Below are positions 28,281 to 56,420 of a DNA stretch of 64,000 nt, in pieces; position 1 is the stretch's first letter; every line of letters begins with the position of its first letter. Below the pieces are notes generated by a model. The model saw only the letters and a program-made list of their open reading frames with translations. It had not been told where the DNA came from and ran no database searches. This stretch comes from Tubulanus polymorphus. Its lineage: Eukaryota; Animalia; Nemertea. The DNA lies in NCBI RefSeq assembly GCF_964204645.1, contig NC_134027.1:7286485-7350484 (forward strand), in the 5' to 3' direction. The position numbers and the translations under genes are program-made.

Positions 28281-28285
28281 AGCCT

Positions 28286-31179: not shown

Positions 31180-31903
31180 CTCAGGGTTTCAACTGGCAGC
31201 GGCGGAGTCGGAGTTCTCTAATGTGGTTTTCGTTCCAGCTAGTGGCGGAGTGCTGGTGATGCGGATGTTACAACGGGGGACCTGCGATCAGAATAAGATG
31301 GGGGTGGTAGCAATCTTCGACTGAGGGGGCTGTTGGATCTTAAGGTCCCCAGTTTGGTCCTTTCCAGTCTGAATCTGCTGGTTCATTGCCTAAGGCTACC
31401 CATTGGGTTCCCCGTTCACCCAGTTGGCTTCTGCCATCTGGGTGTCGGTTGTCTTAGGTGGTGTGCTCAATTGGGTCCCCAGTTTGGTCCAGTCTCTTCT
31501 GAATCTGCTGGTTCATTGCCTTAGGCTACCCATTGGGTTCCCCGTTCACCCAGTTGGCTTCTGCCATCTGAGTGTCGGTTGTCTTAGGTGGTGTGCTCAA
31601 TTAGGTCCCCAGTTTGGTCCATTCTAGTCTGAATCGGCTGGTTTCTTCGCCTAAGGCTACCCATTGGCATCTTGCCGATTGGGTCCCCCGTTCACCCAGT
31701 TTTCTCTCTGGGTGCCGGCTGTCTTTTGGTGTTGATGCTTGAAGATCGGATATCCCCCGAAGCCGAAGATGTTTGTCGCTTCCCATCTTACTCTAATGCG
31801 GGTCCTCCGTAGTAACACCCGTGTCGTCAGCACCCTACCACTAGCTGGGACGGGGCCACGTTAGAGAACTCCGACTCTGCCACTGCCAGTTGGAACCCTG
31901 AGA
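31180..31903 (+). ncRNA. Candidate long hairpin RNA (copy B) with three loop repeats
   Basis: Paralog of 11698-12311; the arms still pair, and most copy-specific substitutions create G:U pairs. Confidence 0.5.
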
Positions 31904-33800: not shown

Positions 33801-36494
33801 TGAAACACGTCGATAATGAACCCAGCAACCATGAAAGGTAACTTAATGTTCATGGAAAAATTTTGATTCATTCTAAATGAAATATTATTATTATCACATC
33901 TAAATGACATATTTTGTCATTACAGGATATCTTCTAATGATCATTGCAGCTAAATTTCAACTATACGAAAAAGCCCAGATTAAGATCAACTACTCGTCCA
34001 AAATCTACAAACTGGAACAGTGCACAGATAAGGCCAGAACTGAACCCAGCAATCTTTAAAGGTAAGTTGATATACATGTTATTACCGGTATATAGAAATT
34101 TCAGGCCTCATATGAATATCATTTGATAAATTACTATCATCAAAATCTATTTACCGCTCCACATGACTAATCTTTTATCTTTACTAGTCTTGAACAATGA
34201 TGAACTAGTCCTACTACTGCAATTAATTATAGGGGTTTAAATCGGCAATTGACGTCAATGACGTAAATTATGATAAATCTGTCTGAAATGTTTTGCTTTC
34301 TTCAATTTGTTTCAGCCAAACTACGTACATCATCAAGAAGATACCCACAACGATTACTGATTGACCCATTTGCTGATGAAAACTGCAGAAGCCCAGGTGA
34401 TAAGTCGAGGAGCCTGCGACGAATGAAACACTCAACGATCGATTCTTCTACAATCGGTGGTTGATTTCTATAAAACATTTTATCAAGAGAAGCAGAGACA
34501 ATAGTGTATCTTATAAACACTAATTCGCGCAGCAATAATGCTAATGGATTATCTTATTAACACTGATTCAGGATAAACACTGTTTTAGAAGCAGCAAAGA
34601 CAATAGTGTATCTTATAAATTGAGGAGCAGCATAAATAGTGCATCTTATAAACACTGAAATCCAGGAGCGGCGAAGATAATAGCGCACTTCTGTAGTAAA
34701 GTATTGATTTTTTTTACTTATCACCCTTTTTCAAATCAGTCTGATAAATAATACAGTTTTTTCGAGGATATTATAATGTTTCATGCAATATGTGAGTAAT
34801 AAAAGCTAAGCTCCATTAATTCAAGATATTGATCTTTGATCCTTGGTTGATGGAAGATAAGTCAAGTTAGGTTAGTGACGAGGGGTAAATGTCGGCGTCG
34901 AGCGCCTAGTTTGAACTCGTAGGCCTGTTGAGTTAACACCTAAACTGAGATATAGTTTCAACATGATATTGTGAGTTTTATCCTCGTGCTTACCATAGTA
35001 AAACAGTCAACAGTGGCTATGCCCCTGTCTGGCTTTGCCCTAGATATCACATAGTTAGGAAACATATAACATAACGTTAGGCCAGTGTTCTATGTGCAAA
35101 TAAGTATTTGCGGAATTGTAGATGTATTAATTTGATGGCATTTTATGATATTTTTTCAAAGGCCCATGTAACTAATTTGACAAATGAATCGTATATGTCA
35201 ATTTTCACATCGAGTTTGAACTTTGACCCTCCATCAATCCGTTTGATGATCATAGCTACCTATTGGAAAACAAAAGCTTCATCTAAGGAGACCATTATTT
35301 ACATTTGAGAGGTAAAGCTAGGAGTAACGAGGCATAAAGTTTTAGCTAGGACTTATTTTGAACGTTTTAACATTGTTTATAGCTGTTTGAACATCTTTTA
35401 TTGTAATGGGTAAATCCATCACAAGATGGCTCTCATGAATAATCACTTAATAGCTTCAAATCGGGTGTATAATGATTATTAAGGAGTGGCAGTGAATCGG
35501 TAGTGCTTTTTTTTAAATTGGATTAAAAACTTTACGGTGAAGAAATGCCTGCAGTTGTAAATAGAGTATATATAATACATAATACAAACTACAAGTACAT
35601 AAATTAATAAAAAATTAGATAAATAAAACAAACAATAAATAATAAATAGTAAATAATACAAAATAAAAGCACATAAATAAAAAGATAATATAAAAACTAG
35701 ATGCAAATAATTAACAACAATACAAACAAACAACAAATTAATACTCTATTCACATGAAAAGGCATTTTTTCAAATATTTATCAACAAGGTTATTCATTTA
35801 TCGAACAACTTTCCTAAAGTATGCCAAAAACCCGATATCTTTTCTGTTGTTATTCAAAGCATTCTATCGGACTCAATTGTTAATTGACAAAACAAATAAC
35901 TATAAACCTTAACTAAATCGAACACACTTAAAAAAATAACTGATATGATAGAATGCTTTGAATAACTGTGATGAAAGATCGACCATCCTTTGAACTAGCC
36001 GCGCTCAATCACGGCTGTGACTGTTTATTGTTATACTGGGGTAGACTTACTGTCTAAAAATTTGGTAAATACATTTTACTTTTTTAAAAGAATGTTAAGC
36101 AGCTATAAACTTAAGTTATTGATGTTATTGATTAGTTACCGATTGTAAAATTACGTTGATCTTTTCGAAGCTGGAAGAAAAAACGTCAGAATACTTAGTA
36201 TGTAATGTCAGGGTGTTTGGAAATCTTTAAGTCAGGGCAAGGTTGCCAAATTCTAGTTTTCTAGTGAAAGTAATGTTAATGAAAATGATATTAAGACTGA
36301 TTAATTGATACTAAGATTTCCAGAGTGAATCCGAGTGTCTCATCTCTAGTTTTAATGCTCTATGTTGGAGACTGTTATTATAACACAGTTCGCATGTTTG
36401 TAAATAAGGAGTAATTAGAAGATGGCGTTTTCATACCAGAGTACTAGAGTACTAGACACCACTCATCACCACAAGTAATTTTTTTTCCTAATAA

Positions 36495-39400
36495 ATGGGG
36501 GAGAATGAACACCAGCCAGAAAACAATAATGTTAATGAAAATCAATATCATTGTCCATATTGTAAAAAATACATTAATAAATCTAATAAATCTCATCATG
36601 AAAAATCTGCAAATCATATAAAAAATGTAATAGATTTTGAAACTCCAGAAAATTCCAATGAAAGAAAAGAACGATTAGAAAATATGAATGTGGATGAAAT
36701 AAAATGTGAAGTTTGTAATGAATTTATAGTAAAAAGGAATTATAAAAGACATCTCGAATCACAAAAACACCATCAAAATTTGAGTAATAATGTTTTAGGA
36801 AAAGATTAAACTAAATCCATTTCAAATAAACCTTACATGGAAAATGTTAGAAATTATATTGATTCACTAGAAATAAAAGATACAATTGAAATTTTAGAAA
36901 CATTACATAGTAAAATTGGTCCTGCGGCTATTATATTTAGATTCTTTAAAGGAACAACAATAGAACATTATAGTAAATTTTATGAAATAATAGAAAAAAA
37001 ACTAGATTTGATAACAGATGTTGAATATCCAAAAATTAGTATCTCTGGGAAAGTAAGTTTTATAAAGTCAGAAGAAAAAATGAATTATATTATTCAAACA
37101 CACTCTGAAGAAATAATTTCAAAAACACAAATAAAAGAGTAGTTAGAAAAAATATTTAATTAATTTAAATGTCATATTGAAGAAAGATATTTTGAGGGTT
37201 CTGGCTTAACATTGAATGAAATTATATATTTAGATTTAAATGTTTATAATACAAAAAGGAATAAAACATCAAAAAGTAAAACAATGTTTAAAAATGACTC
37301 AAACTTTACAACAGAAAAGGATATTAAAGCATCAAGTTATATTAAATTACCATTTACAACAAAAGCAGTAATAAATGTTCAAAATGAAGATAATAAATGT
37401 TTTCTATGGTCAATTATTAGTTGCTTACACCCAACAGAAGATATTACGCATAGTTTAAGAATAACAAATTACCGGAAATATGAAACATTATATAAAATTG
37501 ATCAATATCCAGTAACTATAAAAATGATACCCAAAATAGAAAAAATTAATAAGTTAAAAATAAATGTATTCGAATTAATGCAATTACCAAAGACAAAAGG
37601 TGAAAATATTAAAGATTATACATTGGAAGCTTTATATTTAACAGAATATTATGATGATGAAAATGCTATAGATTTGTTAAATTACAAAAAAGATGAAAAT
37701 GAACATTATATGTGGTTAAAACAAATTGATTTATTCTTTAGAACAGAAAGTGATTTTAACAGTCATAAAATTTATCTATGTAGAAAATGTTTATCTAAAT
37801 TTAGAACTGAGAATACATTATTAAAATATAAAGAATTATGTGATAATAAAGATTTTTGTAAATTAATAATGCCAACAGAAAAAGATTATAAATTGAAATT
37901 TACTAATCATAAATTTAAAAATATTGTTCCATTTGTAATTTATGGGGATTTTGAATCGTTGAATAAAGAATTAACTGATCAAGATAGAAAAGAAATATAT
38001 AACAAAAAGCAATTATTAAAATCAATGGATAAAGGAAATGAATTAAATGAAGACACAACACAAGACCCGCCAATTATAAATACAATTAAAAAAGTTCATC
38101 AAAGAGCTGCTGCTTATGGAATTTATATAAAATCAAATTATCCCGAATTATATGAAAGTCAATATATTTCTTTTAGAGGTGAAAATGTAGTTAATGATTT
38201 TTGTAACAAAATAATTGAATTAAAAAGTGATTTTGCAAAATTATTAAACAGAAATAAAAGAATAGTTATGACAAAAGAAGATGAAGTTGATTTTAATTAC
38301 TCAACTCATTGTTGTTATTGTGAAAAACGTTTTTATTCATTTGATAAAAAAGTTAGAGATCATAATCATTTAAATTCAAAATATCGTGGAGCTGCTCATG
38401 AAGATTGTAATTTACAAGCTAAAAAAGTAAATTTCGTACCAATATTATTTCATAATTTATCAGGTTATGATACCCATCTATTTATAAAACAATTATCAAG
38501 GAAATTGGGCACAACTAATCAAGAAATAGAAGAATATAATGCTATGAATGGTGTAAATGTAAGAAAATATGATTTTAAACTATTAGCTTAAACATCTGAA
38601 AATTATATTTCATTTCAATTTGGTTGCATTAGATTTTTAGATTCTTATAGATTTCTAGCAAGTTCATTAGATAATTTATCAAAAAGTTTAGTTGATAATG
38701 ATTTTATAATAACTCGATATTATTATCCAAATGACCAAGATTTTAAATTATTGAGATTTAAAGGTGCAATTTCTTATTCATTTTATAAAACACACAATGA
38801 TTTTAATGTAACAGAATTATTAAATGATCAATTTTATGATCAATTAAAAGAGGAGTATGTGAAAGACGAAGTGTTTAATAGAACATTAAATATTTGGAAC
38901 CATTTTAAGATGAAAAATCATGGGGAATTAGTTGATTTATATTTAAAATCAGATGTTATGATATTGGCTGACATATTTGAAAAATTTAGAGAAGTTAATT
39001 TGAATCATTTTAATGTTGATCCTTATTATTGCTACTCTAGTCCAGGTTTAACCTGGCAATGTGGTTTAAAATATACAAATGTAGAATTAGATTTATTAAA
39101 AGAACCAGATATGGTTTTATTATTTGAAAAATCAATTAGAGGTGGAATTAGTGGTGTTATGGGAGATAGATATTTTAAAGCAAATGATGAATATAAATTA
39201 TTATATATTGACGCCAATAATTTATATGGTTGGGCAATGATGCAACCTCAACCGTATAAAAATTTTATATTAACAGAAGTTGAAAATGATGATAAAACTA
39301 ATTGGGAAAGCGCAATTATGAGTTTAGAAGATGAAGCACCAATTGGTTATTTCTTTGTAGTTGATTTAGAATATCCTGAAAATATAAAGTTTAAAACAAG

Positions 39401-41523
39401 AAACTTACCTTATTGCCCAGAACATTTAACTGTAGATGATAGTTATTTAAGTGAATACCAGAAGAAAATAAAACCGAAAGATCATGTTTTTACAGAAAAA
39501 TTAATACTTACTCAAAATAATAAATACAATTACATTGTTCATTATAGAATGTTAAAATTTTATCTAAAACAAGGAATGAAATTAAAGAAAGTACATAGAT
39601 ATATTGAATTTAATCAATCGAAGTGGTAAGAAAAATATATAGATTTTAATACTCAACAGAGAACCATATCAAAAACAGATTTTGAAAAAGATTTCTTCAA
39701 ATTAATGAACAATAGTTTTTATGGTAAAACATGTGAAAATATTAGAAATAGAAATGATATTGAATTAGTAAATAATTCTGAAAGATTAAGACATTTACAA
39801 TCAAGTCCTAGACATTTAGGAAATAAAAGATTTGAAGATTATTTAACAGCAGTTAAATTAAAAAGAACGTCAATGAAATTTAATAAACCTATATTTATTG
39901 GTTCAACTGTTTTAGAAGTATCAAAATTATTAATGTATGATTTTTATTATAATGTTTTGCAACCACTTTTTGGGGAAAAGCATATTGAAATATTATATTT
40001 TGATTCTGTAACAGCTGACACCCCAATATTATTAAAATGTAATGATAAAATATTGATAAGAAGAATTTCAGAAATAATTCCAAAACAAAATGAATGTTAT
40101 ATTTCATATGGTGAAAAAGAATTAAAAAGAATAAATGGATTAATGGATGTTTGGACAAGAAATGGATGGAAAAAATTAAAGAATATTATTAGACATAAAA
40201 CAAATAAGAAAATCTATAGAGTTAGAACTAAATTAGGATTTGTAGATGTTACAGAAGATCATAGTTTAATTAAACGAAATGGTGATGAAATAAAACCAAC
40301 TGATATAAAAATTGGAGATGAATTATTACATAAAAGATTTTTCCAAAGAATGAATCATATGTCATTTGATGAAATTATTGATAATATTTATAACATAGAA
40401 CCCGAAACATTAGAAGAAAAAGAATATTTTATCAAAGGATTTTTCATGGGAGATGGTTCAGCAGGTGTGTATAATTATGTTTGGGGTAATAAATATTGTT
40501 GGTAATTATGCAATCAAGACTTAAAATTATTAGAAAGAATTAAGAAATTCTGTGAAGAAGTTTATTCACATTAAACATTCAAAATCATAGATGTTATGAA
40601 ATCATCAGCAGTTTATAGAATACTTGTAAATAATCCTAAAGATTTTGCTATAAAATATAATGATGAATTTTATATTCATGCAATAGTGAAAAGTAATACT
40701 TCAACTAAAGAAAAGATAGTACCAGATTATGTATTAAATGCAAAAAATAATTTAAGAAAGTGGTTCTTCATTGGATTCTATGCCGCAGATGGCACTAAAA
40801 AATTTACAAAGGATAAAAAGATAACCTTTGCACAGAAAGGAAAAGTTGCTATATCAGGATTAAATATATTATGCAGTTCATTAATATTTAATATGAATAT
40901 AGAATTAATTAAATCTAAACCAAATTGTTTTAATTTAAGGCATGTAGAAAAAGAATTAACAGAAGTTAAAGATTTATTTGAAATATATAACCCAACTGAC
41001 TATGTTTATGATTTATCAACAGATGATGGAACATTCAATTCTGGGTTCCCATTAATCCAAAAAAATACTGACAGTTACATACTAAAAATCAAGACAAATG
41101 ACATAACAAAAGACTTAAAAACATTAAAACATCATTTTGATTTTAGCAATTATCCCAAAGATCATGAACTATTTAACAATGATAATAAAAAGATTCCTGG
41201 TAAATTTAAAGATGAATTAGGGGGTGATGAAATGATTGAATTTGTTGGGATAAGAAGTAAAATGTATAGTTATAGAACAAAAGATCATGAAGCTAAAAAG
41301 TTAAAAGGAATAACAAAACATGTGGTTGATAAACATATAGAATTTCAAGATTATATAAAGTGTTTATAAAACTCAATTGTAATGAAACATAAAATGAATT
41401 GTTTAAGATCAGAAAATCACGAGATGTACATTAATGAAGTTGAAAAAATTAGTTTAGAATCCATTTGATGATAAAAGGCATATTTTAGATGATGGTATAA
41501 AAACATTACCTTATGGCCATTAA
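36495..41523 (+). pseudogene. Protein-primed family B DNA polymerase (pPolB) with N-terminal Zn-finger region, EndoVII-like insert and an intein; 8 in-frame stops and one late frameshift
   Basis: ORFs starting at 36495, 36837, 37212, 38751, 39705 and 40596 share one frame. Motifs: EGSG, SSYIKLP..INVQNEDNKCFLW, ExoI VIYGDFES, VRDHNH..YRGAAHEDCNL, ExoII FHNLSGYD, Pol A YIDANNLYGWAM, Pol B KLMNNSFYGKT, Pol C YFD/TDS, GKFKDE, SKMY; C-terminal PFDDKR..TLPYGH after a +1 shift near 41457. Confidence 0.93.
40005..41066 (+). mobile_element. Intein with LAGLIDADG homing endonuclease inserted in pPolB motif C (354 codons, two internal TAA)
   Basis: Extein YFD | block A SVTADTPILL; block B VDVTEDHSL; block C FIKGFFMGDGS; block E FFIGFYAADGT; block F YVYDLSTDDGTF; C-terminal KN | TDS. 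Removing it restores YFDTDS. Confidence 0.92.
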
Positions 41524-41798
41524 AACATAAAATCAATATCATCATACTCGAAATCACTATTGGCTTCTTCATTTTCATTTAATTGTTCTTGTATAATTTG
41601 TTTAGGTTCTTCCATTTCATTTTTCTCATTTAAATAAAGTTCTATCTTGTACCACATTTCATCTCGCTCTCTTTGTTTCTTTTTGTTTGTTAATTCGTCA
41701 AATGGAATTATGATATCGATGTTTAAATAATTTACAATCTTATTTAAAAAGAATTCATAATTTATTGAATCTGTTATTCTATTTTCCAAATGATACAT
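41520..41798 (-). CDS. Polinton hypothetical protein, acidic C-terminus
   Basis: 92-aa ORF convergent with polB. Confidence 0.5.
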   Translation of the reverse strand: MYHLENRITDSINYEFFLNKIVNYLNIDIIIPFDELTNKKKQRERDEMWYKIELYLNEKNEMEEPKQIIQEQLNENEEANSDFEYDDIDFMF

Positions 41799-41847
41799 TA
41801 ATATTTGTTAAAATATTTTTTTTTTATATTTTCCATATCTTCTTCTG

Positions 41848-42849
41848 TTAATTTGATTTTTCATAATAATCGTTAAATAATAAATATAAATACATTTTCT
41901 TTTGTTTTGTGTTAAATTTTGACGGAATAATTGTTTTTATAATATCTTTTTTAGTTATTTCACCATTTTTATTTTCTATTATTTTCATTTTTTCAAGCCA
42001 TTGCATATATTCTGGTGTATGATCTTCTATAGAAAATATTTTAAAAATTTCATCTAGATAATTTAATTTTGGATCTATGAGAAAATTTCTAGTTTTTTCT
42101 TCACCCCATAAATTCTTTTGCCATCCACAATCAACACAAAATAACACAGTACCTTCTTGTCTTAAGGTCGCGTAATTACATTGTGGACATTTTCGTTTAT
42201 AATTTATTGGTAATAGATCTTCATTAAGCTCTTGGTATTTTCTTACGTTTTCTTTATGTTTTATTGTTCTATTATGTAGATTTGAATTATTTGTTGTAAT
42301 AATCAATTTACAATATTTACAATAATATGTTTTTCTTGTTAATTCATTATATTGTTTTTCTAACTTTTCAACTGTTTCTTTATTATCTTGTAACGTTTTC
42401 TCATATTTTATTTTTTCTGATAAACTATTTTTTCTTTCATTGAATTCAGTTTCAAATTTATTAGAAATTTTATCTATATGTACTTTACGAAATTGATGAT
42501 TCTCCCAATCTTCTATATTTTCAGGGCTATATTTTACTCGACAAGGCTCGCAGAAATGATCTTTTATATTATCCTTGTCATAGAATAAGAAAGGTCTTTT
42601 CCAAATAATTTCAGGTTCAACTTCAACAGAATTACTATTACTTTCATTACTATCAACATTAGCCGTTGCGCCATTAATTTTACACTTCTCTGAATGTTTT
42701 TTAACATAATTTCTTGAGAATAATTTATTACATTTTGGACAGTTTAGTTTAGGGGGTTTATAATTTTCATCATGTTTTTTCATATGTCGAGCCATATTAC
42801 TTTTTCTTAGAAATTCACCACAAATTTCGCATGGTATCTTCTCATCCAT
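41848..42849 (-). CDS. Polinton multi-zinc-finger protein
   Basis: CEIC..HMKKH, CPKC..H..C, CEPC..H..H, CKYC..H..H, CPQC..CVDC; TAAATG start. Confidence 0.75.
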   Translation of the reverse strand: MDEKIPCEICGEFLRKSNMARHMKKHDENYKPPKLNCPKCNKLFSRNYVKKHSEKCKINGATANVDSNESNSNSVEVEPEIIWKRPFLFYDKDNIKDHFCEPCRVKYSPENIEDWENHQFRKVHIDKISNKFETEFNERKNSLSEKIKYEKTLQDNKETVEKLEKQYNELTRKTYYCKYCKLIITTNNSNLHNRTIKHKENVRKYQELNEDLLPINYKRKCPQCNYATLRQEGTVLFCVDCGWQKNLWGEEKTRNFLIDPKLNYLDEIFKIFSIEDHTPEYMQWLEKMKIIENKNGEITKKDIIKTIIPSKFNTKQKKMYLYLLFNDYYEKSN

Positions 42850-42917
42850 TTATTAAGGAAAAATTTTATTAAAATTAATTTTTAGTGATGAGCGGTAATT
42901 TTTTTATGTTATAAATA

Positions 42918-43674
42918 ATGGTAAATTAAAAGAATACAGAATATTTGTTGATTCTAGAAAACTTACAAATTATAAATCACATAATTTAATAGTTCAATTA
43001 GATAGAGAATTTAAGAATTGTATTGATTTAAAATTAGTAAATATAAGTTTATGTAACTCATTTTACAATGTATCGGATAAAAGTAGAACATTTAATTTTT
43101 TCAATCTTTTACAAAAAAAGGAATAAATGGTTTTTTATATATTTAAAACCAGGATTATATAATTTAGATACATTAGCACAAGAAATTAATAGAAAAGCTC
43201 GAGCTAAATTAGGAAGTGATTCCGGATTTAGTATTAGAATTTTAAAAAGTGATAGTTCTAATAAAATAAAGATTAGGTTAGCTAATGACGAACAATTTAA
43301 ATTTACAGTAAGAAAACCTTTAGGTAAACTGTTAGGAAATAAACCCAGATATTGTTACAGCATACCCAGAAGGTAGATCAAACTTAATACCTTTCACACA
43401 TTTTTATATTTATTGCAATTTAATTGACCCAACAAAAACATTTGAAGCAACTAAAGATACCATTTGTAATTCTAGTATATTAAATATTTTACCATTAAAA
43501 AATGTTAAACAATTTGGAACGCAAATAAATTATAATTTAACTGAATGTGATTTTAAACCTTGTATTCCACATTTCAATAATTTTAAATTAGAAATAAGAA
43601 ATCATAATGGTTATTTAATTGATTTGAATAACTTTCCTGTAATTTATGAATTAGTTATAAGATGTAGAGAGTAA
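42918..43674 (+). pseudogene. Probable minor capsid protein (penton, single jelly roll), frameshifted
   Basis: Fragments RIFVDSR..NSFYNV, PGLYNLDTL, YIYCNLID, ILNILPL, KLEIRNHNGYLIDLNNFPVIYELVIR resemble recalled Polinton penton motifs. Confidence 0.6.
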
Positions 43675-43690
43675 TTTTTTCACTATATAA

Positions 43691-44044
43691 ATGAATATAA
43701 CTGTTGGACCGAGTATATGTTTTGGGTTCGATTTTAAACGTGAGAAAGAAATGAAATTTAACATTAATGATGTAATTACACATGTCAAAAATATTGCATT
43801 TTCTAATGAAACAACATTTGAGTATGAAACAACAATAGATAAAGAAACTTTAAATGTAGAAAAGATTACTAATTTGATTAGAGAATCTTTAAGATTTTAT
43901 GAATTAGATGAAGATTTTATCATCGATGATATTAAAAAAATAATAATTGAAATATATACAAATGAAACTAGTAATGAAATAAATGTTGAAATAATCATCA
44001 CTAAGATAACCAAATATTTTAAAGATGTTAATTTTTTTGATTAA
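43691..44044 (+). CDS. Polinton hypothetical protein
   Basis: 117-aa ORF, TAAATG start. Confidence 0.6.
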   Translation: MNITVGPSICFGFDFKREKEMKFNINDVITHVKNIAFSNETTFEYETTIDKETLNVEKITNLIRESLRFYELDEDFIIDDIKKIIIEIYTNETSNEINVEIIITKITKYFKDVNFFD

Positions 44045-44047
44045 TAA

Positions 44048-44269
44048 ATGAGTGATAATAAGTGGATAATAACTGGATTATATAATGGAGCATTACTATC
44101 AGTTGGAACTGTTGGTTATTCAATGGTATTAAAAAAGGTATTCAAAATGGGAAGTGTTAATGCTGATAGATTTGATATCAATGATATTTTAAAATTAACA
44201 TTAGCAGTTACTTTATCTAATTTAACTATTGATTATTTAGAAAAACAAAAATATATTCCTCCCATATAA
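44048..44269 (+). CDS. Polinton small hydrophobic protein
   Basis: 73 aa, two hydrophobic stretches, TAAATG start. Confidence 0.65.
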   Translation: MSDNKWIITGLYNGALLSVGTVGYSMVLKKVFKMGSVNADRFDINDILKLTLAVTLSNLTIDYLEKQKYIPPI

Positions 44270-44293
44270 ATGCGTAATTATTTTACTAAATAA

Positions 44294-44716
44294 ATGGCTT
44301 CTGCAATTATAACTGTCATAGGATCAGCAATTGTTAACGCTTTAGCATTTACTGCTGGCGGTTATTTATTTAAGCATATTGATAAAAATAGTTCATTAGG
44401 AGAACAAAGAAGACATAACTTAGCATTAGAGAAATACAATAAAGCAGCAGAAGAATACAGAGAAAAACGACAAAACTATATGGATTATATTAACAAGGAA
44501 TTATATGATCAGAAGATTTCACATAGAGATTTTCAATCAGTTGATGATGCAATGAGTTTATATAACGCAGTAACCAATAAAGAAAAATTACATCTATACA
44601 AACCTAAATTATCAGATTATTATACCCCAAGTAAAGAACAACAGAAATATGAAATAATATGGATTTTAGGTGGAACTGTTATTGTTATATTTGTAGCATA
44701 TAAATTTACTAATTAG
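44294..44716 (+). CDS. Polinton membrane-associated protein
   Basis: Hydrophobic N-terminus MASAIITVIGSAIVNALAFT, helical RRHNLALEKY region, C-terminal TM segment. Confidence 0.7.
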   Translation: MASAIITVIGSAIVNALAFTAGGYLFKHIDKNSSLGEQRRHNLALEKYNKAAEEYREKRQNYMDYINKELYDQKISHRDFQSVDDAMSLYNAVTNKEKLHLYKPKLSDYYTPSKEQQKYEIIWILGGTVIVIFVAYKFTN

Positions 44717-44735
44717 TAATTTTTTTTCTAAATAA

Positions 44736-45137
44736 ATGGAAGATAAAGTTGATAGCATTGATATTATTCCTCATGATATAAATAAAACTAAATTAAAAAT
44801 ATATTTAGAAAAACAAATATTAGAATTTGAAAGTGACTTAAAGACAAAAAAGAAAAATTATTTAAAAAGTAAAATTATATATTATCTTATTATTAGTGGT
44901 TCGGTTACAATTAGTTCTGTAATAACATTTCTAGCAATATTCAGTCCATTAACACCTTTAGCTATTTCAATTGGTGTATTAGGATTAAGTTCAAGTGTTT
45001 TAACTGGTATAAGTTCAAAATTAAATATAAAAAGTAATAAAGAAAAAATTAAAACTAATATAAAAGAAATTAATAAATTAAAGAATACACTAGATTATAT
45101 AATAAGTTTAAATGGTCATATAACAGTTGAAGAATAA
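44736..45137 (+). CDS. Polinton two-TM membrane protein
   Basis: Hydrophobic hairpin IIYYLIISGSVTISSVITFLAIF...LAISIGVLGLSSSVLTGI between basic helices. Confidence 0.65.
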   Translation: MEDKVDSIDIIPHDINKTKLKIYLEKQILEFESDLKTKKKNYLKSKIIYYLIISGSVTISSVITFLAIFSPLTPLAISIGVLGLSSSVLTGISSKLNIKSNKEKIKTNIKEINKLKNTLDYIISLNGHITVEE

Positions 45138-45186
45138 GATAAATTATTAAAAGAATTAATAAATTATCAATTTTTTAATTATATAA

Positions 45187-46572
45187 ATGGTAGATAGTTT
45201 TCCAAAAGCTTTCCAATATAATAAATCAATTAAATATAATATTCCAGCAATAGATTTTAATAAAGATATTACATATAGAAATGAAGTTTTAGATTCATTA
45301 ACTAATTTAGAAATTTATGTTACTGAAACTAATAATTTTAATTCAAAGATGGAAAATATATTTCATGTATATTTAATTAATTTTAAAAAATTGAAAGATG
45401 AAAAACAATGGTTATTAAAATCTAATATGAAGTATTGGCAGAACCAATTAAATTTTGCTGTTTATTGTGCAACAACAGGATGTGGAATTAGTTGGAATGA
45501 TCATTTGAATAATTCTAAATATAAATTAATTCAAAGTTTATTTAGATTTCATACATACTTTCAAATCAGAATAATATTAAATGAATTAGAGTGCGCTTTA
45601 CCAGGATCTAGGTATTTTAAAGAATTAGATAATAATATTAATTTAACAAAGTTTTATAAAATTTGTAATGAATTTAATATAGATATGAATAATTTTGATT
45701 TTAGAACAAAAATTGGAACAATAAGATCACTTCCTTGCCCTAAAAAGATTGCAGAATATTGTGCACTTCCCATACCATCTAATAGTTTGTATAATATCTA
45801 TAGTAATAAATTAGGTTATGGTAAAATAGAAACTAAGGATTTAGAAACATTAAATTTCAATAAATTACCGACATTTTATGATAATTTAAAACAAGAAAAC
45901 AATAATGGTTGGGTTTATTTCATTTTAGAAAATAATGAAGGTTTTACAAAATCAGGTATACAAAGAATAAATCAATCTATTAGAACTTATTTGATATGTA
46001 TTTAGGTGCGCAAGTTGAAACAAGATCCCCAATAATTGGAAATTTAAATACATCATTTGATACACAGAAACAATTCAAAGTATTATTTGAAGATTCTATT
46101 CATAATGATAAAAATAGATCGATTCCAGAAAACATTGTAAGATATCAAAATTATTTAGATAAATCTCATGTAAGACTAAATTATTGTATAGGCCCTAATC
46201 TATTAATTATTTCTAATGATTTAGTACTAAAGATGGGAAACATAATTGGTTACAATAATCTAATTAAAACCGCAACAATAAATAATTCATTTGGATTAAA
46301 TGATATAAATAAAAAGATTATTACCGCTCCAAAATTAATGGAAGGTGAAAAAAATAAAAAACATTCAATCAACAGAAACTAAAACTAAAAATATTAAATT
46401 GCATAATGATTCTAAAATAAAAGATTACAATACATCAGAAAATATAAAAACTGATAATATTCAACATGATATAATTAAAACTGATAATGATAATAAATTC
46501 CATGAAAATACTAAATTAGCTTTAACTTGTACAGGAATTGTTATAGGAGGAATATTATATTTTAAATTCTAA
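45187..46572 (+). pseudogene. Polinton hypothetical protein (YWQNQLNFAVYCATTGCGIS motif) with C-terminal TM, split by two frameshifts
   Basis: ORFs 45187-46005, 45996-46382 and 46345-46572 overlap end to end; only the first has a TAAATG start. Confidence 0.65.
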
Positions 46573-46588
46573 TTTTTTTATTATATAA

Positions 46589-48019
46589 ATGGATGTAGAA
46601 GGTGGAGAAGATATTGGAATGGATCCTTTAGATGAACCTGGTATAACTGATGAACAACAACCTGATTTTAGTGAAACAAGTTTTAATGACGGTAATGAGT
46701 CAGGATATAATAATAATTTAAATATGCCTGATTATATTAGAAATGCAGAATCACAATTAAATCCTGAAAATTTAGACCCAGATTTAGTAAAACAAGATTT
46801 AGATAATCTAAACAAAATACCTAAATTAGAAGATTTAATTGAAAAATCTAAACTTAACATAAATGATGAAGACGTTGGACTTTTAGCAGATCAATTAAAA
46901 TTTTTAGATAATGGTAAATGTTATTATCGTTTGAAAGGTGATTATTATATTGATATCACTTATAAAAATAATAAAAATAAAATATCAGAATCAACTTTAG
47001 AAAAATTAAAACCAGATAGAATTAAAAGAATAAGTAATAGTAATGAAATAACTGATGTTACACAAAAAGAAATAGATGATAATATAGACGTATTTAAACA
47101 AAAAATTAATGAATTATTTGAAATAATCAAAAAGAAATCAGAAACAGAAACAACTTCTGAACAGAATATAACTTCCAAAACTAGTAAACTTAAATCAAAT
47201 AAAGTTTCAATTGAAAAACTTTTACCGAATGGATTAATTGATGCAACAGATCAACAATTAGAAGATTTAAATAATATATTTTCTGTTGAAGCAATTACAG
47301 AAATTAAAAGTATAAGGCTTGCATCTGATAAAATTGCGCATGATAAAAGTATAAGAGATTTTAAAATTAGAACTTTAGAAAAAGAATTAACTGATAAAAA
47401 TAAAGAAATAGAACAATTAAAATTAGATAGAGATAATAATGTTATTGAAGAAATTGAATTTAAAAAAAGAAATGCATATTTAGAAAAAGAAATTGATGAT
47501 TTAGAATATAACATAGAATTACAAAAAGAAGAAATTAAATTATTATTAAAATCATATGATTATAATATTAATAGATTAAAAGTTATTTTTAAAGATTTAT
47601 TGATAAAACCAAATTCTGAAATATCATTGAAAGATAGAATAAAGTTATTATTTAAATTAGAAGGAATAACAATTCTTTCAATTCTAACAGCTGTAACTAT
47701 GTTATTTACAACAATTGGTTTAGCAATATCAAATGCTTTAAAATCTACTCCTACTGCAAATAAACCGGATAAACCCCCAGGTAATAATTCTATACAAGAT
47801 AAAGTTAAAGATGGTTTAAAGAAATTAGCAAAATATTTATGGGAACTATCTAAAAAATCTGCTGCAGCTTTACCAAGAATTATTGCATCAATTGTTGGTT
47901 TTATATTGAAATCTGCTGGGAATATTCTTAACTTTGCCGCTGAACATATTATTTTATTTTTAATTACAGTTGTAAGTGCTATTATTTTTGGGTTAGTGAA
48001 TATGATTAAAAATAAATAA
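46589..48019 (+). CDS. Polinton coiled-coil membrane protein
   Basis: 476 aa; acidic N-terminus, long coiled coil, hydrophobic GITILSILTAVTMLFTTIGLAI and C-terminal hydrophobic helices. Confidence 0.75.
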   Translation: MDVEGGEDIGMDPLDEPGITDEQQPDFSETSFNDGNESGYNNNLNMPDYIRNAESQLNPENLDPDLVKQDLDNLNKIPKLEDLIEKSKLNINDEDVGLLADQLKFLDNGKCYYRLKGDYYIDITYKNNKNKISESTLEKLKPDRIKRISNSNEITDVTQKEIDDNIDVFKQKINELFEIIKKKSETETTSEQNITSKTSKLKSNKVSIEKLLPNGLIDATDQQLEDLNNIFSVEAITEIKSIRLASDKIAHDKSIRDFKIRTLEKELTDKNKEIEQLKLDRDNNVIEEIEFKKRNAYLEKEIDDLEYNIELQKEEIKLLLKSYDYNINRLKVIFKDLLIKPNSEISLKDRIKLLFKLEGITILSILTAVTMLFTTIGLAISNALKSTPTANKPDKPPGNNSIQDKVKDGLKKLAKYLWELSKKSAAALPRIIASIVGFILKSAGNILNFAAEHIILFLITVVSAIIFGLVNMIKNK

Positions 48020-48039
48020 TTAATTTTTTTGTTAAATAA

Positions 48040-49317
48040 ATGAGTGGGAGTTATATAAGTCCTTCTAAGATTTCTAGAATATCTAATGTTATTAAAGCAG
48101 AAAGATCACATCATATAATTACTCATAACCCTTCTTATATTAATCCCGATGAAACTTTATATGTTAGAATTCCTCGATTAACACAAAATACTTTTTATAT
48201 TCCAAATAGTATTTATCTATCAGCTGATATAAAAGTAACTGGTCATGATAATAATTATGTTGTTGATAATGTTGGGAGATATTTGATTAAAAAATTAACT
48301 ATAAAGATTGGTCCAGAAACAGTTTTCTCATTAGATGATTATAATTTATTTATGCATTATAAAGATTTATGGTTAACTAAAGAAAATAGAAATAATATGA
48401 TATTTCAGGGTATTCAATCGGAAAACCATAATAAATTAAGATCAGGAGCTAATGACGCAATAGTAACTCGTGCCACAGATAATTTGATTAAAAAGATTAA
48501 TGGAAGCAAATATAAAATTCCATTAGACTTTGAATTGATAAATAATAATGCACCTTTATATAAATACGCAATTCAAGAAGATATTATATTTGAGATAACA
48601 TTTGCTCCTGTAAATGAAATTGTATTATCTAGCGTTGTTAAAGATATGGGTTATAAATTATCGAATATATGTTTAGAATATGACACAGTAACTAATGAAA
48701 ATATTGCTAGCACAATTCAAACTCAATACAATCAAGGATTTTCATTATTATATGATTATATTGATAAATTTAAAACTGTAACTATTAATGCAAATGATGA
48801 AATAATTTTTGAGAATATTAACTTCCCAAGAAGATCTATTAAAGGTATATTAATATTTTTTACCATTGCAACATATTCTAATGGTGCAATAAAGGTAGAT
48901 AATTATTATAATCCTGAAATAACAAAAGTAGAAATAACTATCGAAGGAATAGCAAATAAAATATTTTGTCAAGGAATGAGAATGATAGATCAGTGGCCAG
49001 AAATTAGAAAACATTTTATGAATGAAAAAGTAAAATCATCTGAAAATTGTGATATTAATCAAATTGATTATTATACCGGTAATAAATATGCATTATGGTT
49101 AGATTTTAGAACAACAGAGGATAATCCATTACATGGTTCTGGGAAAAAACTACAGAACACTAAAGATGGAATACAATTATTCATGGCAAAGAAAAGAGGA
49201 GACAAAAATTTCCAAATGCACATTTATATTATATCTGACGCACAATTAAATATTGTAAATTCACAATTAGATAGTATTCAATATAAGAAATATAAAGTTA
49301 AAATTAAGGATATATAA
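48040..49317 (+). CDS. Probable major capsid protein (double jelly roll)
   Basis: 425 aa, beta-strand-rich; NPSYINPDETLYVRIP, NVGRYLIKKLTIKIG, YKDLW, IPLDF, LSNICLEYD and YALWLDFR resemble recalled MCPs of invertebrate Polinton/adintovirus elements; adjacent to integrase and ATPase. Confidence 0.75.
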   Translation: MSGSYISPSKISRISNVIKAERSHHIITHNPSYINPDETLYVRIPRLTQNTFYIPNSIYLSADIKVTGHDNNYVVDNVGRYLIKKLTIKIGPETVFSLDDYNLFMHYKDLWLTKENRNNMIFQGIQSENHNKLRSGANDAIVTRATDNLIKKINGSKYKIPLDFELINNNAPLYKYAIQEDIIFEITFAPVNEIVLSSVVKDMGYKLSNICLEYDTVTNENIASTIQTQYNQGFSLLYDYIDKFKTVTINANDEIIFENINFPRRSIKGILIFFTIATYSNGAIKVDNYYNPEITKVEITIEGIANKIFCQGMRMIDQWPEIRKHFMNEKVKSSENCDINQIDYYTGNKYALWLDFRTTEDNPLHGSGKKLQNTKDGIQLFMAKKRGDKNFQMHIYIISDAQLNIVNSQLDSIQYKKYKVKIKDI

Positions 49318-50428
49318 ATGGGTGGTAAAAAAACTCCTAATACTAAAGAACAATATTTAAGCAATTTATATTACAACCCTGAGAGTACCAAAAATATATG
49401 GCGTCAAGTAAAACAAGATAAATTAGATAAGATAATCCCACAAAATTTAGTTAAATATAAAGATATAAATGAATTTATGTTAGAACAACCAACATATACA
49501 ACACATAAAAAAATTGTTAGAAAATATAAAACTCGTAAAACTATGGTAAGTTATGTAGATCAACAGTGGCAAGGAGATTTAATTGATATGAAAAATGTTA
49601 AGAAAGATAATGATGATTATTGGTGGTTATTGAATATAATTGATATTTTTAGTCGTTATGTATGGAGCTTCCCACTTTATAGAAAAGATGCTGTACCAAC
49701 ATCAAATATTTTAAGAAAATTTCTTTCGGATGATAAAACTAAAACCAGAAAAAATACAATTTGATGATGGAAAAGAGTTTGATAATTCACTTGTTCATGA
49801 ACTCTTAGATAATCATAATATTAAATATTTTTCAACAAAATCGGATAAAAAAGCAGCAGTTGTTGAACGATTTAATAGAACATTAAGAACAAGAATGTGG
49901 AAATATTTTACAGCAAATAATACTTTTAAATGGTTTGATGTTTTACCAAAATTGACAGAAGGATATAATAATTCTTATCATTCTTCTATTGGAATGAAAC
50001 CTATTGATGCTAGAAAACCTGAAAATGCTGAAATTGTTTGGAATAATTTATATGGAGCATTTCTTGTAAATGATTTTGGTGAACCTAAATTTAAAGTTGG
50101 TCAAAATGTTAGAATTTCTAAGTATAAAAAGATATTTGACAAAGGATACGATCGAAATTTTACTAGAGAAATATATAAAATAAAAAAGGTAATAACAACA
50201 AAACCATATGTCTATAAATTAGAAGATTTAAATGGTGAAGAAGTTGATGGGTATTTTTATGAAGAAGAATTAAGTTTAACTACTGAAAATCTAGAACAAG
50301 AATATAAAATTGAAAAAGTATTAACAACAAAAACTATTAAAAGAAAAAAATATTCTTTAGTAAAATGGGTTGGATGGCCAGATAAATTCAATGAATGGAT
50401 ATTATCAAGTAAAATTAAAAATATATAA
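49318..50428 (+). pseudogene. Retroviral-like (RVE) integrase with C-terminal chromodomain, one frameshift near 49740
   Basis: QWQGDLIDM..LNIIDIFSRY (D), QFDDGKEF (D), KAAVVERFNRTL (E), YNNSYHSSIGMKP; chromodomain YKIEKVL..LVKWVGWPDKFNEWI. Confidence 0.93.
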
Positions 50429-51037
50429 ATGAATAAGGAATTATTTATATTTGAGCCTTATAATATGTTAATTTCTGGTGTAACAAATTGTGGAAAAACT
50501 TATTTTATATTAAATTTATTAGAAACTGTTTATAAAAACTTTTTTGATAATATAGTATTATTTTGTCCAACATATGAATTTAATCAAACTTATGATAGAA
50601 ATATTACTAGAAATAATGAATTTATTATATTAGATCCTAAAACAGTAAAAGAAAATTTAGATAATTGTATTAAAATAGCAATAGATATTTATAAAGGATC
50701 AAATACATTATTCATTATAGATGATTGTGCAAATTTACATGATTCAAAAATTAGAGAGAGTGAGTTATGTTATTTAGCTTTTTCTGGCAGACATTTTGGG
50801 ATAACAACTTGGATTTTAAATCAAAAATATAATTCAATTGTTAAAGACTTTAGAGAAAACATTAGATTTCTAGTTTTATTCTACAATAAAGATAGAAAAT
50901 TGATGAAAAATGCACTTGAGGAAAATGATATAATTCCACATGATTTACATAATGAATATATGGATAAGTTGAAAAATATTAAAAGATCAAAATTACTATT
51001 TAGATTACAACACCCATTTAAATATGAATTTATTTAA
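50429..51037 (+). CDS. A32/FtsK-like genome packaging ATPase
   Basis: Walker A SGVTNCGKT, Walker B LFIIDD, GRH motif, ILNQKY. Confidence 0.9.
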   Translation: MNKELFIFEPYNMLISGVTNCGKTYFILNLLETVYKNFFDNIVLFCPTYEFNQTYDRNITRNNEFIILDPKTVKENLDNCIKIAIDIYKGSNTLFIIDDCANLHDSKIRESELCYLAFSGRHFGITTWILNQKYNSIVKDFRENIRFLVLFYNKDRKLMKNALEENDIIPHDLHNEYMDKLKNIKRSKLLFRLQHPFKYEFI

Positions 51038-51039
51038 AT

Positions 51040-51320
51040 TCAACAAGCTTGTTAATCTATTACATATTTAGTTAAATTCTAGTTGAATTCTAGTTAGTAG
51101 TAGTTGGAACAAAAATCAACTAGATTTAACAATATTTTAACTAGCTTGTTAATCTAGTATATTTTTAGTTACATTCTAGTTGAATTCTAGTTATTAGTAG
51201 TTGGAACAAAAATCAACTAGATTTAACAAGAAATAAATAAAAACAACAATATTTCAACTAGCTTGTTAATCTAGTTGAATTCTAGTTGCATTCTAGTTGA
51301 ATTCTAGTTGCAACAACACA
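51040..51320. repeat. Intergenic CTAGTT/AACTAG-rich direct and inverted repeat region within the Polinton
   Basis: CTAGTTGAATTCTAGTT occurs four times; ~100-bp duplication (GTAGTTGGAACAAAAATCAACTAGATTTAACAA twice); AACTAGATT vs AATCTAGTT inverted. Confidence 0.85.
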
Positions 51321-51341
51321 ACTGATTTATTTGTTATATAA

Positions 51342-51947
51342 ATGGGAGGTGAAAAGAAAATAAAATCTAAAAATGGTGATGTTCCAATTGAAAAAACTTT
51401 AGATGATTTAGGAATAACAGAAAACAAATTAATTCCAGATGATGGTGTTTTAAATAATGTTACAACAAATACTAATTATGAATATTATCTTTATTGTAAA
51501 CATCAATTAGAAATATTAATAGCATCTGGAAAATGTAAAAATTTTGTCGGTAAAAATTTAACTTATAATGAATTAGATACAATGAAATCAGATGAAATTA
51601 TTAGATTATTTAAGATTTATGAAACTGCGAGAACAGCTAGAATAAATGACGCGATATCAGAAAATGTAGTAAAAGGTTATAGTAAATTATGTAATTATAT
51701 GCTGCCAATTCAAGATGAAAATAGATTATATGCTGATTTAAAAAATGATTATTTAGTTATGACCGAATTAAATAAATGGATTGGATATTTATCATTTCAA
51801 TTAGGTGGATTTATGACATTATTATCAACTGGGGTTATAACATTTTCAAATATTGAAAGTAAAAATATTTCTATAATAAATGAACAAGGTGGAAGAAGTG
51901 AAGGAATTAACTGTAAAGAAAAAACCGAGATCACAGAAACAAATTGA
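51342..51947 (+). CDS. Polinton hypothetical protein
   Basis: 201-aa ORF, TAAATG start, hydrophobic segment near the C-terminus. Confidence 0.65.
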   Translation: MGGEKKIKSKNGDVPIEKTLDDLGITENKLIPDDGVLNNVTTNTNYEYYLYCKHQLEILIASGKCKNFVGKNLTYNELDTMKSDEIIRLFKIYETARTARINDAISENVVKGYSKLCNYMLPIQDENRLYADLKNDYLVMTELNKWIGYLSFQLGGFMTLLSTGVITFSNIESKNISIINEQGGRSEGINCKEKTEITETN

Positions 51948-52247
51948 ATGGTCTCGGCAATTAGGAATTAAATCACAAGAATATAAAAAAGCTGTAAAAG
52001 AAAAATAAGTAATAAAAATGTTAATAAAAATGGTGAAAATATTGTTATTTCTACTCCTTCTAATGATAGAATATTTGATAAATGTCTATATTTTACAGTT
52101 GGATTTGTAATTGTATTCATTTTGATTGGGTGTAATTGGTATAAGAAATCAAATAAAATTCATGATATTAATAATTCTGAAACAACTGCTATCAAAAATG
52201 AAAATAATTCTGAAATTCCAAAATTGACAATAAAAAAAATGGATTAA
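51880..52247 (+). pseudogene. Polinton small basic protein with TM segment, disrupted
   Basis: TAAATG start MNKVEEVKELTVKKKPRSQKQIEW, then a stop/frameshift, then LYFTVGFVIVFILIG. Confidence 0.5.
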
Positions 52248-52435
52248 TATTTTAGAAAAAAAGCAAAAAAAATAATTTTTTTAATTAATTGAATATTAAT
52301 TGAATATCACCATGTGGGTGCCATACGGCACCATCTCACTACTTTTGTCTATCTATGCGGAGCAATTAAATTGTCCAGATAAGTCATTTCGGATTCTAGA
52401 TATTCATTATTTTTATTAATTTATTTTTTTAAAAT

Positions 52436-52762
52436 TTAATCAACAATTTCTAAATCATGATGGCCATCTTCATTTTTTCCATGATAGATTATTTTAAATC
52501 CTTCTAAATCTTTTAATTCCTCTGTACTCAATGAAACCCATTTATCAGGTAAAAATACTTTAAATTCTCGCGATGTACTAACATTACAGTAGCTTAAATT
52601 AGCTGATACTTTCTCTCCATATCTAGTATTTATCTTTTCTAATTTCAATATTTTATGTTCAATTTCTTTTGTAACTTCAACTCACTTTTTTATTTCAAAT
52701 TGTTTTTTTGCTGGTTTTATTCTGTTATTTATTGTTGCTAAGAATGCTTTTCTATCTCCCAT
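52436..52762 (-). pseudogene. Polinton small protein starting at the right TIR, one in-frame TGA
   Basis: TAAATG start at 52762, MGDRKAFLATINNRIKPAKKQFEIKK*VEV... in frame with ORF 52648-52436. Confidence 0.55.
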
Positions 52763-54359
52763 TTATAAGGAAAACAAATTACTTGTGGTGATGAGTGGTG
52801 TCTAGTACTCTAGTACTCTGGTATGAAAACGCCATCTTCTAATTACTATTAGGAACTTTCATGATGATTCCTCCATTAAGATATTATTGTTGTATTATTA
52901 TTTGTTGTATTATTGCGAATAAAAGGATGTACATTTTCATCTCTCATGTTGAAACTTTTCAGTTGTTAAGTTTTATAGCAACAATTGCACTGTGGTGCTT
53001 TTCAGTGGTTCATAAAATACTGATTTAATTAAGGGCCTGTCTAAAATAGCAGCAGTTTCTTGATAACTTTAGGATACAGTGCTTTTGGTCAATTGTCCTA
53101 GCTTTGTTTTGATTATCGGTTTAACCGCGTCTGTGTGGGGCCTGTAATATCTGGACTCAAGGAATTTCTGATCTTTAGAGTTGTTATATCTACCTATCAA
53201 GTTGAATAATATAATAAGAAGTAACTGTAGCTTTGTCAGTCAAACCATATTTGTTTGAAGTTACGGTACTTGATTTATCTTGAATTGCCACGAAGAAAGA
53301 CCTATATTATAGTTTGCAGGGTTTGATCTAAGGAATAAATTCCACTTGACCTTGGGGCAAGCATATATGTAATATCTATTGAAGTGAAGTGTTAATTAGT
53401 AGATTGTGCTAGCTATATTCAAATTGACAGGTGAAAAACTCTATCTTGTTGATTGCATATAAGAGGATACCTCCAAAATACTTTGTATAAATGTAACATG
53501 TGAGAAAATAACCAATTTGATCATGTCTGAGCAAAGGTGGCAAGACTCTAGTTATCTTGTTAAATAAAGTTTATGAAAATTAAATCAAATGTTTAGTTAA
53601 TCATAAGCTTTCCAGTTTAAATTTGTATTTTTATCTCTGATTTTCAATTTTTTATGTTGGAGACTTTTTTTAAAATACAGGTCATCTTTTTGTAAATGAG
53701 GCACTTCCTCAAGTACATAAATACGTCATTTAGGTATAATTGTTGTTGTGGGATAAAACGACATGTTCATGTCAATTGAACCATTACATGAGTGAAACTC
53801 TCGTTTACGCCTATGGTGGTTGGACAAAAGTTGCTTTTTAAAGTCCACGTGTTTGATGAGCTTACATTATAATTCCTCGAGCACTCCTGGCATTTTCTAT
53901 AATTGTTGTACGAGAATAAATATGATTGATTTTAAAATTTGTCATTCGTTTAGTTAAGTTTGATATAGCAAATCCTGGATTGAGACCTAAATCGCTTAAG
54001 ATAAACTGAATTAATGAAGAAATGAAATCGATTTAAGAGTTAAACCTTTTATGAAACTCATGTGTTCTACTTCTTTTTTTCAACCGAAAAAAATAATCCC
54101 ACCACCAACTGGTCTGCCGACAAGCTTTAGATGCGATTATATCGACAGCACAAAACCATACGTTCCGACACTGCACATTACGCTGGGCCCGTTGACAGTT
54201 GTTAACGTTGTAACTCGATAGTTGTAACTCGCAACTGGCAACTACTAAAGCAACTGGCAGTGTCGTCTCAGGGCTTCCATACTATTAACCGATGTAACCA
54301 CCCTCGCTTGCCAGGGGTCCAGTATCACTCCCGAACTCGCTTCCACCAGTTTGGGGAAC

Positions 54360-56297: not shown

Positions 56298-56420
56298 TTG
56301 TCTTTAGGTAAATAATAATAATTTGGTTTTTCTTGTGAATTATTTTCTAACGGATGATTGAAACAGATTGAATTGTGATATTATTTTTTATCATTTAAGG
56401 AAATCATTTTGTGTATAAAA

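Follow-up and report, generated by a model that had tools for sequence, protein, structure and literature searches.

The window analysed here, a stretch of 64,000 nucleotides from the nemertean Tubulanus polymorphus, holds a gene for a protein-primed DNA polymerase B (pPolB) whose catalytic motif is split by a long insert, and this raises the question of what the insert is, how it came to lie in animal DNA and whether it still moves. The original prediction had described a 354-codon in-frame insert with intein hallmarks at YFD/TDS, and the translation and junction motifs bear this out: positions 40005-41066 are in frame with the polymerase and read ILYFD / SVTADTP ... YVYDL ... GFPLIQKN / TDSYIL. 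The insert has the following parts.

40005..41066, forward strand: intein of 354 codons, from Ser1 to Asn354 and then Thr+1, splitting motif C after its first Asp
40251..40262, forward strand: block B TEDH (TxxH), kept in 8/8 relatives compared
40428..40457, forward strand: first LAGLIDADG motif, FIKGFFMGDG, with the acidic catalytic position present
40764..40796, forward strand: second LAGLIDADG motif, FFIGFYAADGT, with the acidic catalytic position present

Both the intein block names and the class 1 splicing path are established knowledge, and the insert carries the Ser1, TxxH, block F Asp, terminal Asn and Thr+1 of a class 1 intein, together with the two motifs and acidic catalytic residues of a LAGLIDADG homing endonuclease. 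Profile matches support the intein call: TIGR01445 (intein N-terminal region) scored 31 bits against a cut-off of 24.5 and LAGLIDADG_3 22.7 bits against 22.5 (E 1.2e-4), while Pfam Intein_splicing stayed below its cut-off of 35.8 on the insert alone (E 4.9e-7, 30.1 bits) and exceeded it only when the whole polymerase protein was used (37.4 bits). Sequence matches of the insert in the PDB were PI-PkoII and a polymerase intein, and a Foldseek search with a weak model (pLDDT 53.5) of the relative P0124 returned intein homing endonucleases as its first 12 matches, including TliVMA, PhoVMA, PI-SceI and PI-PkoII. The penultimate residue is Lys and not His; a penultimate His is usual in class 1 inteins, not universal, and among 8 relatives the position is held by Lys in 4 (P0006, P0007, P0012, P0014), His in 3 and Ser in 1. 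We regard it as virtually certain that 40005-41066 is an intein, and the precursor is predicted from its sequence to splice the insert out of the polymerase.

The polymerase gene in turn lies in a Polinton. This context, which had also been predicted, was confirmed by inverted ends, a target duplication and a gene set of pPolB, integrase and ATPase. The element and an informative host gene are laid out as follows.

36410..52847: Polinton/Maverick element of 16,438 bp, decayed, with stops and frameshifts in several genes
36404-36409 and 52848-52853: target duplication of 6 bp, 5/6 bases matching
36410..36502, forward strand: left terminal inverted repeat, 93 bp, starting AGT, with 90/93 bases matching the right arm
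52755..52847, reverse strand: right terminal inverted repeat, 93 bp, ending ACT
36495..41523, forward strand: protein-primed DNA polymerase B gene, host of the intein (PF03175 E 1e-18; gene end taken from the sequence)
38301..38417, forward strand: HNH (endonuclease VII-like) domain inside the polymerase (PF02945 E 0.0016, under cut-off)
41520..42849, reverse strand: zinc-finger ORF (41848-42849) and VLTF3-like piece (41520-41807; PF04947 E 1e-4, under cut-off)
48040..49317, forward strand: likely double jelly-roll major capsid protein (Capsid_N E 0.018; a lead only)
49318..50428, forward strand: retroviral-type integrase with chromodomain, in two frames (rve E 1e-4, Chromo E 2e-4)
50429..51037, forward strand: A32-type packaging ATPase (PF04665 E 2e-13)
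2209..3678, reverse strand: host BTB-BACK-Kelch gene (100% identity over 97% to kelch-like protein 9 of Tubulanus polymorphus)

Polintons are defined as elements of 13-25 kb with terminal inverted repeats and a target duplication of 5-8 bp (PMC10748475). The element here measures 16.4 kb and has a 6-bp duplication with 1 mismatch, and its 93-bp arms are slightly shorter than the lower figure of 100 bp given for the repeats in the same source (PMC10748475); it encodes a pPolB, a retroviral-type integrase and a packaging ATPase. For the capsid candidate at 48040-49317, atlas features matched viral clusters, and in some of these 10-24% of the members are assigned to capsid families; a single-sequence fold model had a pLDDT of 29. 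The zinc-finger ORF and the VLTF3-like piece are probably one broken gene. This piece, which resembles a nucleocytovirus-type late transcription factor, and the weak Capsid_N match form a further link to giant viruses; the parts of 10.64898/2026.10.13.758929, PMC10120064 and PMC10748475 available to us make no mention of VLTF3. A minor capsid candidate at 43047-43674 had no family match in the Pfam scan, and among the element ORFs scanned there was no Pfam match to an adenovirus-like maturation protease, the gene for which may be broken or divergent. A small ORF at 44736-45137 (forward strand) with two transmembrane segments matches SLATT weakly (E 0.006), and SLATT genes have been reported in related viruses (10.64898/2026.10.13.758929).

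The chromosome carrying this Polinton is that of an animal, as predicted. The protein to which the Kelch gene is identical, kelch-like protein 9 of Tubulanus polymorphus, is encoded on a 27.8-Mb contig, and the next named matches are proteins of other nemerteans, molluscs, annelids and brachiopods; reads of the uninterrupted flank were found in 3 of the 4 read runs examined. From this match and these reads we conclude that the host is an animal chromosome. In addition, 46 reads join position 36403 to 52848 and so represent an uninterrupted site. We set this join aside as proof of a polymorphic insertion, the flanks being repeats with a depth of about 100 per direction. The element family occurs at high depth in a DNA run from another sample with the same species label, and no RNA run is among the read sets listed as containing the element's words.

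That the DNA is not animal at all, being a protist or viral contig joined in assembly, or that the insert is a Hedgehog-like Hint domain, is extremely improbable. The GC content of the Polinton is 23% vs 35-36% in its flanks, and a marine metagenome run has a small share of the element's words, both of which would suit foreign DNA; against it stand the inverted ends with their target duplication, the uninterrupted-flank reads, the high depth of the family in the second sample and the Kelch gene, whose product is identical to that of a named nemertean. As for the animal Hedgehog/Hint domains, they have the chemistry of the Hint fold in common with inteins, but they contain no endonuclease and do not bring two exteins back together; the insert combines an endonuclease with both splice junctions, sits in a conserved motif and is exactly absent from other alleles.

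The rest of the window contains further mobile DNA. At 19831-22540 (forward strand) RT/RNase H and tyrosine-recombinase-like ORFs overlap (RT_RNaseH match), a layout that we take to be that of a DIRS-type retroelement. Two near-identical Ser/Arg-rich gag-like ORFs, at 26067-27878 (forward strand) and 28286-30085 (reverse strand), enclose an RT fragment in a region of 55% GC, and 26067-30085 probably represents rearranged DIRS-like copies. We also observed a single-exon sulfotransferase ORF (7123-8106, forward strand; PF03567), an Ulp1-type protease ORF (56379-57065, forward strand; PF02902) and short MITE-like elements with inverted arms at 54954-55482 and 31179-31903.

The two TAA stops predicted in the endonuclease part, at 40503-40505 and 40572-40574, are present, and one reading of them would be that the endonuclease in particular has decayed. 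Stops in the polymerase gene start at 36807, 37140, 37161, 38589, 39627, 40503, 40572 and 41367, and a frameshift lies near 41456. Over the polymerase frame 36495-41455 the 8 stops fall on 2 of the 354 codons of the insert and 6 of the 1299 codons of the exteins (Fisher p 0.68), and endonuclease-specific decay was rejected, stop density being alike in the two parts. As the stops are spread over the frame and accompanied by a frameshift, they are not specific to the endonuclease and do not mark it as decayed; the window copy is dead through general decay. The HNH-like domain that lies upstream in the same polymerase has a counterpart in the pPolB2 class, for which an HNH domain inside the polymerase has been described (PMC10748475).

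Other copies of the family could be followed in X6, a set of raw genomic reads from a second sample labelled as this species (about 12% of the run, likeness 80). In 40 of these reads exactly 1062 bases were skipped at the insert, and 42 reads skipped 1070 bases and had 8 other letters instead (net 1062). Depth was 136-267 within the insert vs 393-737 in the adjoining extein bins. At the four stops checked, a sense codon was found in 234/234, 182/188, 740/749 and 250/256 reads, counts that apply per site and not per whole copy. Skips, depths and sense codons together indicate a multi-copy family with occupied and empty alleles, mostly without the stops of the window copy. Of the intact and intein-free Polinton copies that the original prediction proposed to look for, exactly intein-free alleles are present in the genomic reads, and nearly all reads are free of stops at the four positions.

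To place the intein among its relatives, we collected homologues of the insert, of which 332 were found at E<=1e-5 among 4166 candidates and 120 were listed; a 50%-cluster library gave 2060 matches at E<=0.001. The best matches were inteins at the same site in other pPolBs, namely P0003 (62% identity), P0004 (49%), P0006 (47-49%), P0005 and P0007 (46%) and P0010 (42%), with the shorter fragments P0123, P0127 and P0130 at 65-74%; inteins of RNA-primed PolBs followed at about 30-42%. In two intein scans, from which the best 80 of 511 and the best 80 of 390 were taken, L081 was the only pPolB, and its broken intein frame kept it out of the trees described below. No relative was confirmed among viral contigs, where a scan with P0003 gave 57 pattern matches and one with the N-extein ORF gave 1. 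In all, 376 complete inteins were extracted, 351 of them from RNA-primed PolBs, 15 from pPolBs, 5 from topoisomerase II and 5 unassigned, and 333 of the 376 are inserted at YGD/TDS. With the same site after the first Asp and the closest similarity to inteins there, the insert belongs to the pol-c (position III) allele, and the predicted sharing of this site with giant-virus PolB inteins is correct (PMC549080).

Several relatives lie in other settings. Topoisomerase II inteins (P0008, P0093, P0096, P0118, P0246) sit at D/TDG, a look-alike of motif C, and 12 related inteins sit at PolB motif B (N/SMY); judged by sequence, these two sites appear to reflect non-allelic jumps of the same intein family. 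The nuclear Pol delta of the green alga Chloropicon primus (P0105), whose cluster also has a shorter, transcript-derived member of 1137 aa, carries an intein of this family at YGD/TDS with 33% identity to the window intein. In a cluster of 55 members (P0124, P0191, P0193, P0137, P0198) the ORFs consist of little more than the intein, with about 11 residues before it and 4-7 after it, and recur on many long contigs; they may have been left behind by broken polymerases, or their inteins may occupy a look-alike site that is not part of a full polymerase. The P0004 cluster has 136 members, and the contigs of those listed range from 57 kb to 1 Mb in length; this points to a multi-copy element residing in a eukaryotic genome.

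Does the intein move among Polintons? Occupied and empty alleles also occur in two metagenomic pPolB families, those of P0004 and P0007. For the P0004 family we compared 12 near-full-length sequences of the 15 listed, out of 136. Seven of the 12 have the intein and 5 are without exactly its 346 residues. All 10 fixed extein differences between the two classes lie at -7 to +44 residues from the site, while 7 polymorphisms, mostly distant from it, are common to both classes; members of the family may be non-independent. Compared with P0004, the empty alleles differ at 13-19 of 60 sites near the insertion and at 9-18 of about 1130 far from it (51 of 1061 in one member), and their motif C reads YTD/CDS, YFD/TDA or YGD/TDA vs YMD/TDS. 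A probability of 7e-9 for clustering near the site is not relied on, the interval having been defined after seeing the data. With fixed differences only near the site and distant polymorphisms shared, the site region moves independently of the remaining gene. This pattern is as expected from co-conversion during homing, an established mechanism (PMC10643990), or from escape by target replacement; it could equally stem from empty alleles taking a cut-resistant motif-C region from a distant family. In the P0007 family, P0178 has the intein and P0181 is without it, and over 746 aligned residues there is no difference near the site.

A second indication comes from P0006, a distant pPolB whose exteins are 23-31% identical to those of the window and whose residues ~655-700 contain a motif that we take to resemble a VSR-type nuclease insertion. 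Its intein groups with the window intein (100/89), and trees excluding P0006 from this group were rejected (AU p 0.027), so that the intein seems to have crossed into this distant lineage.

The same comparisons bear on the possibility that the intein is a passenger, inserted once long ago and vertically inherited since, with empty alleles arising by precise loss or ordinary recombination and with an endonuclease that is inactive today. For most pPolB pairs the identities of intein and extein run in parallel (63 vs 59-61%, 52 vs 45-51%), which fits long vertical co-inheritance as well, and the precise absence with identical flanks in P0181 suits loss as well as gain. Yet the endonuclease domain is kept (44-61% identity vs 46-70% for the splicing domain among pPolB inteins), with both acidic motif residues retained in 6/6 pPolB relatives, across lineages about 50% apart; the intein of P0006 runs against the extein relationship; and the class differences of the P0004 family lie at the site only, distant polymorphisms being common to both classes. 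We consider such a passenger quite unlikely and homing among Polintons, as read from these alignments, very probable. Since intein-bearing and empty alleles occur side by side in several families, continuing mobility and not one event is the main story.

The origin of the intein was addressed with two trees, for which only sequences with both junction motifs were kept (the first pass removed 120). FastTree was run on 264 inteins, reduced from the 376, and IQ-TREE on 60 chosen rows (8 pPolB inteins, 15 of the 27 rows of the sister group, 16 of the next, 15 others and 6 from other sites), rooted on 4 motif-B inteins, one of them long-branched, with archaeal pol-c inteins not among the rows. The pPolB inteins formed one clade in both (9/9 with support 1.0 in FastTree; 8/8 with 100/100 in IQ-TREE), nested in the motif-C inteins of RNA-primed PolBs (98/88 branch in IQ-TREE). 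Its sister is a group of 27 members, supported at 0.88 in FastTree and 91/92 in IQ-TREE. When the genomes of the sister group were looked up in supplement 1 of PMC8575486, 7 of 12 were found, 6 classified as IM_01 and 1 as IM_07 (Imitervirales), IM_01 being the Mesomimiviridae (PMC8575486); the sister subgroup P0014-P0016 and P0220 is unclassified. A C-terminal G[FT]PL is present in 9/9 pPolB inteins and in 19 of 236 motif-C inteins of RNA-primed PolBs, all 19 of them in the sister group.

The nesting among nucleocytovirus inteins that had been predicted is thus recovered in both best trees, and the proposed transfer from a giant-virus PolB into a pPolB agrees with it; the direction of transfer is held less firmly, a placement of the pPolB inteins outside all motif-C inteins of RNA-primed PolBs not being rejected (lnL 21.3 lower, AU p 0.121). 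A mobile intein that did not come from giant viruses, being an old sister lineage, derived from a cellular PolB or itself the source of the nearest giant-virus inteins, would fit this AU result and the long stem (0.42) leading to the pPolB clade. It would also fit the presence of the same intein family in Chloropicon Pol delta and in topoisomerase II, which implies frequent host changes. Against such an origin, the pPolB clade is nested in both trees, the C-terminal signature is limited to the sister group containing Imitervirales, and P0105 lies farther from the window intein along the tree (2.63) than the nearest viral inteins (1.73-1.9); 248 of the 262 dereplicated inteins are in RNA-primed PolBs, a preponderance that is partly a sampling effect. 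We therefore judge a non-giant-virus origin unlikely, and, on the strength of the trees and the signature, a giant virus the likely donor.

A jump from a giant-virus PolB appears to be old and to have founded a pPolB-specific intein clade across several Polinton families. Around the site, the DNA of the window matches 26 viral loci at 10-17 of 24 bases, so the cross-class jump needed a tolerant or different endonuclease. It may well have taken place in a protist cell. A route for such a transfer exists in principle, since a Polinton-like virus has been described whose replication depends on co-infection by a giant virus (PMC10120064).

Taken together, we consider it probable that the Polinton of this nemertean carries a full-length motif-C intein that is predicted to splice, likely to home and likely to be of giant-virus (Imitervirales-type) descent. 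Occupied copies would translate a precursor polymerase, which would be spliced by the class 1 path, with an acyl shift at Ser1, transfer to Thr+1 and cyclisation of Asn. Splicing would restore the YxDTDS motif that the polymerase needs and free the endonuclease. Its cleavage of an empty site in a further copy, whether integrated or replicating, would be followed by repair from the occupied copy, which would transfer the intein together with a short flank. Long ago, in a cell with both polymerases, the shared D/TDS site would have allowed the intein to pass from a viral, RNA-primed PolB into a pPolB, and Polintons would then have brought it into animal germlines. The most far-reaching version of this model, in which a working intein of giant-virus origin is cycling today among animal-germline Polintons, with repeated jumps between lineages and empty alleles that change motif C to escape cutting, we advance tentatively, as a possibility just short of an even chance.

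The insert has close counterparts in the Mimivirus PolB intein and the pol-c inteins, with which it shares the motif-C position, Ser1, the terminal Asn, Thr+1 and a LAGLIDADG domain, its length being 354 residues vs 351 in Mimivirus (PMC549080). It differs in its host: pol-c inteins are those of archaeal and nucleocytovirus PolBs, whereas this one lies in the protein-primed PolB of an animal-integrated Polinton. A special tie to Mimivirus is not established, the nearest relatives with a classification coming from IM_01 (Mesomimiviridae) and IM_07 viruses. The HNH and VSR insertions of Polinton pPolB2 are likewise nuclease domains inside Polinton polymerases, and the parts of the source seen report no splicing domain for them (PMC10748475); in contrast to them, the window insert interrupts the catalytic motif, is bounded by a complete pair of splice junctions and shows exact presence and absence. 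The words 'intein' and 'LAGLIDADG' have 0 occurrences in the main text of PMC10748475. The nearest statement in print, within the literature seen, is the suggestion that intein invasions gave rise to the homing-endonuclease insertions of polinton pPolBs, made with reference to nuclease domains (PMC11071308).

Nuclear inteins are known from protists, fungi and algae, some of them of viral origin (PMC10710043, PMC5784728), and these, including those of endogenous nucleocytovirus polymerases, are like Chloropicon Pol delta similarly virus-linked in nuclear DNA. The portions seen of these two papers list no animal and no Polinton among the hosts; a distinguishing trait here is the multi-copy carrier, which means that empty targets exist within one genome. 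Inteins have been stated in reviews to be absent from metazoan genomes (PMC8529194), and a eukaryote-wide survey lists none in animals (PMC5784728). Our own search, which covered subscription journals and supplements (such as the pPolB alignments of PMC10748475) only in part, turned up no Hint-domain intein for any Polinton or for the nuclear DNA of an animal; the search terms have 0 occurrences in the text seen of PMC13215967, and the text seen of PMC12220804, PMC3671162 and PMC5718144 is also without one.

The intein allele was already known; new are its host class and its host kingdom, and it shows signs of still being mobile. With the catalytic motif split, any Polinton spreading with the intein must have spliced its polymerase, and protein splicing is thereby tied to Polinton replication. 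Animals are usually said to lack inteins because opportunities for homing are few. That argument does not hold for a multi-copy element whose sister copies include empty ones, and in such an element the persistence of the intein becomes testable by allele counts. The intein also serves as a marker of contact among Polintons, distant pPolB lineages and probably giant viruses, and as such bears on the question of a viral, co-infecting phase of Polintons. If the intein is indeed cycling today, it would represent a selfish element with protein splicing at work in an animal nucleus, one parasite living on another.
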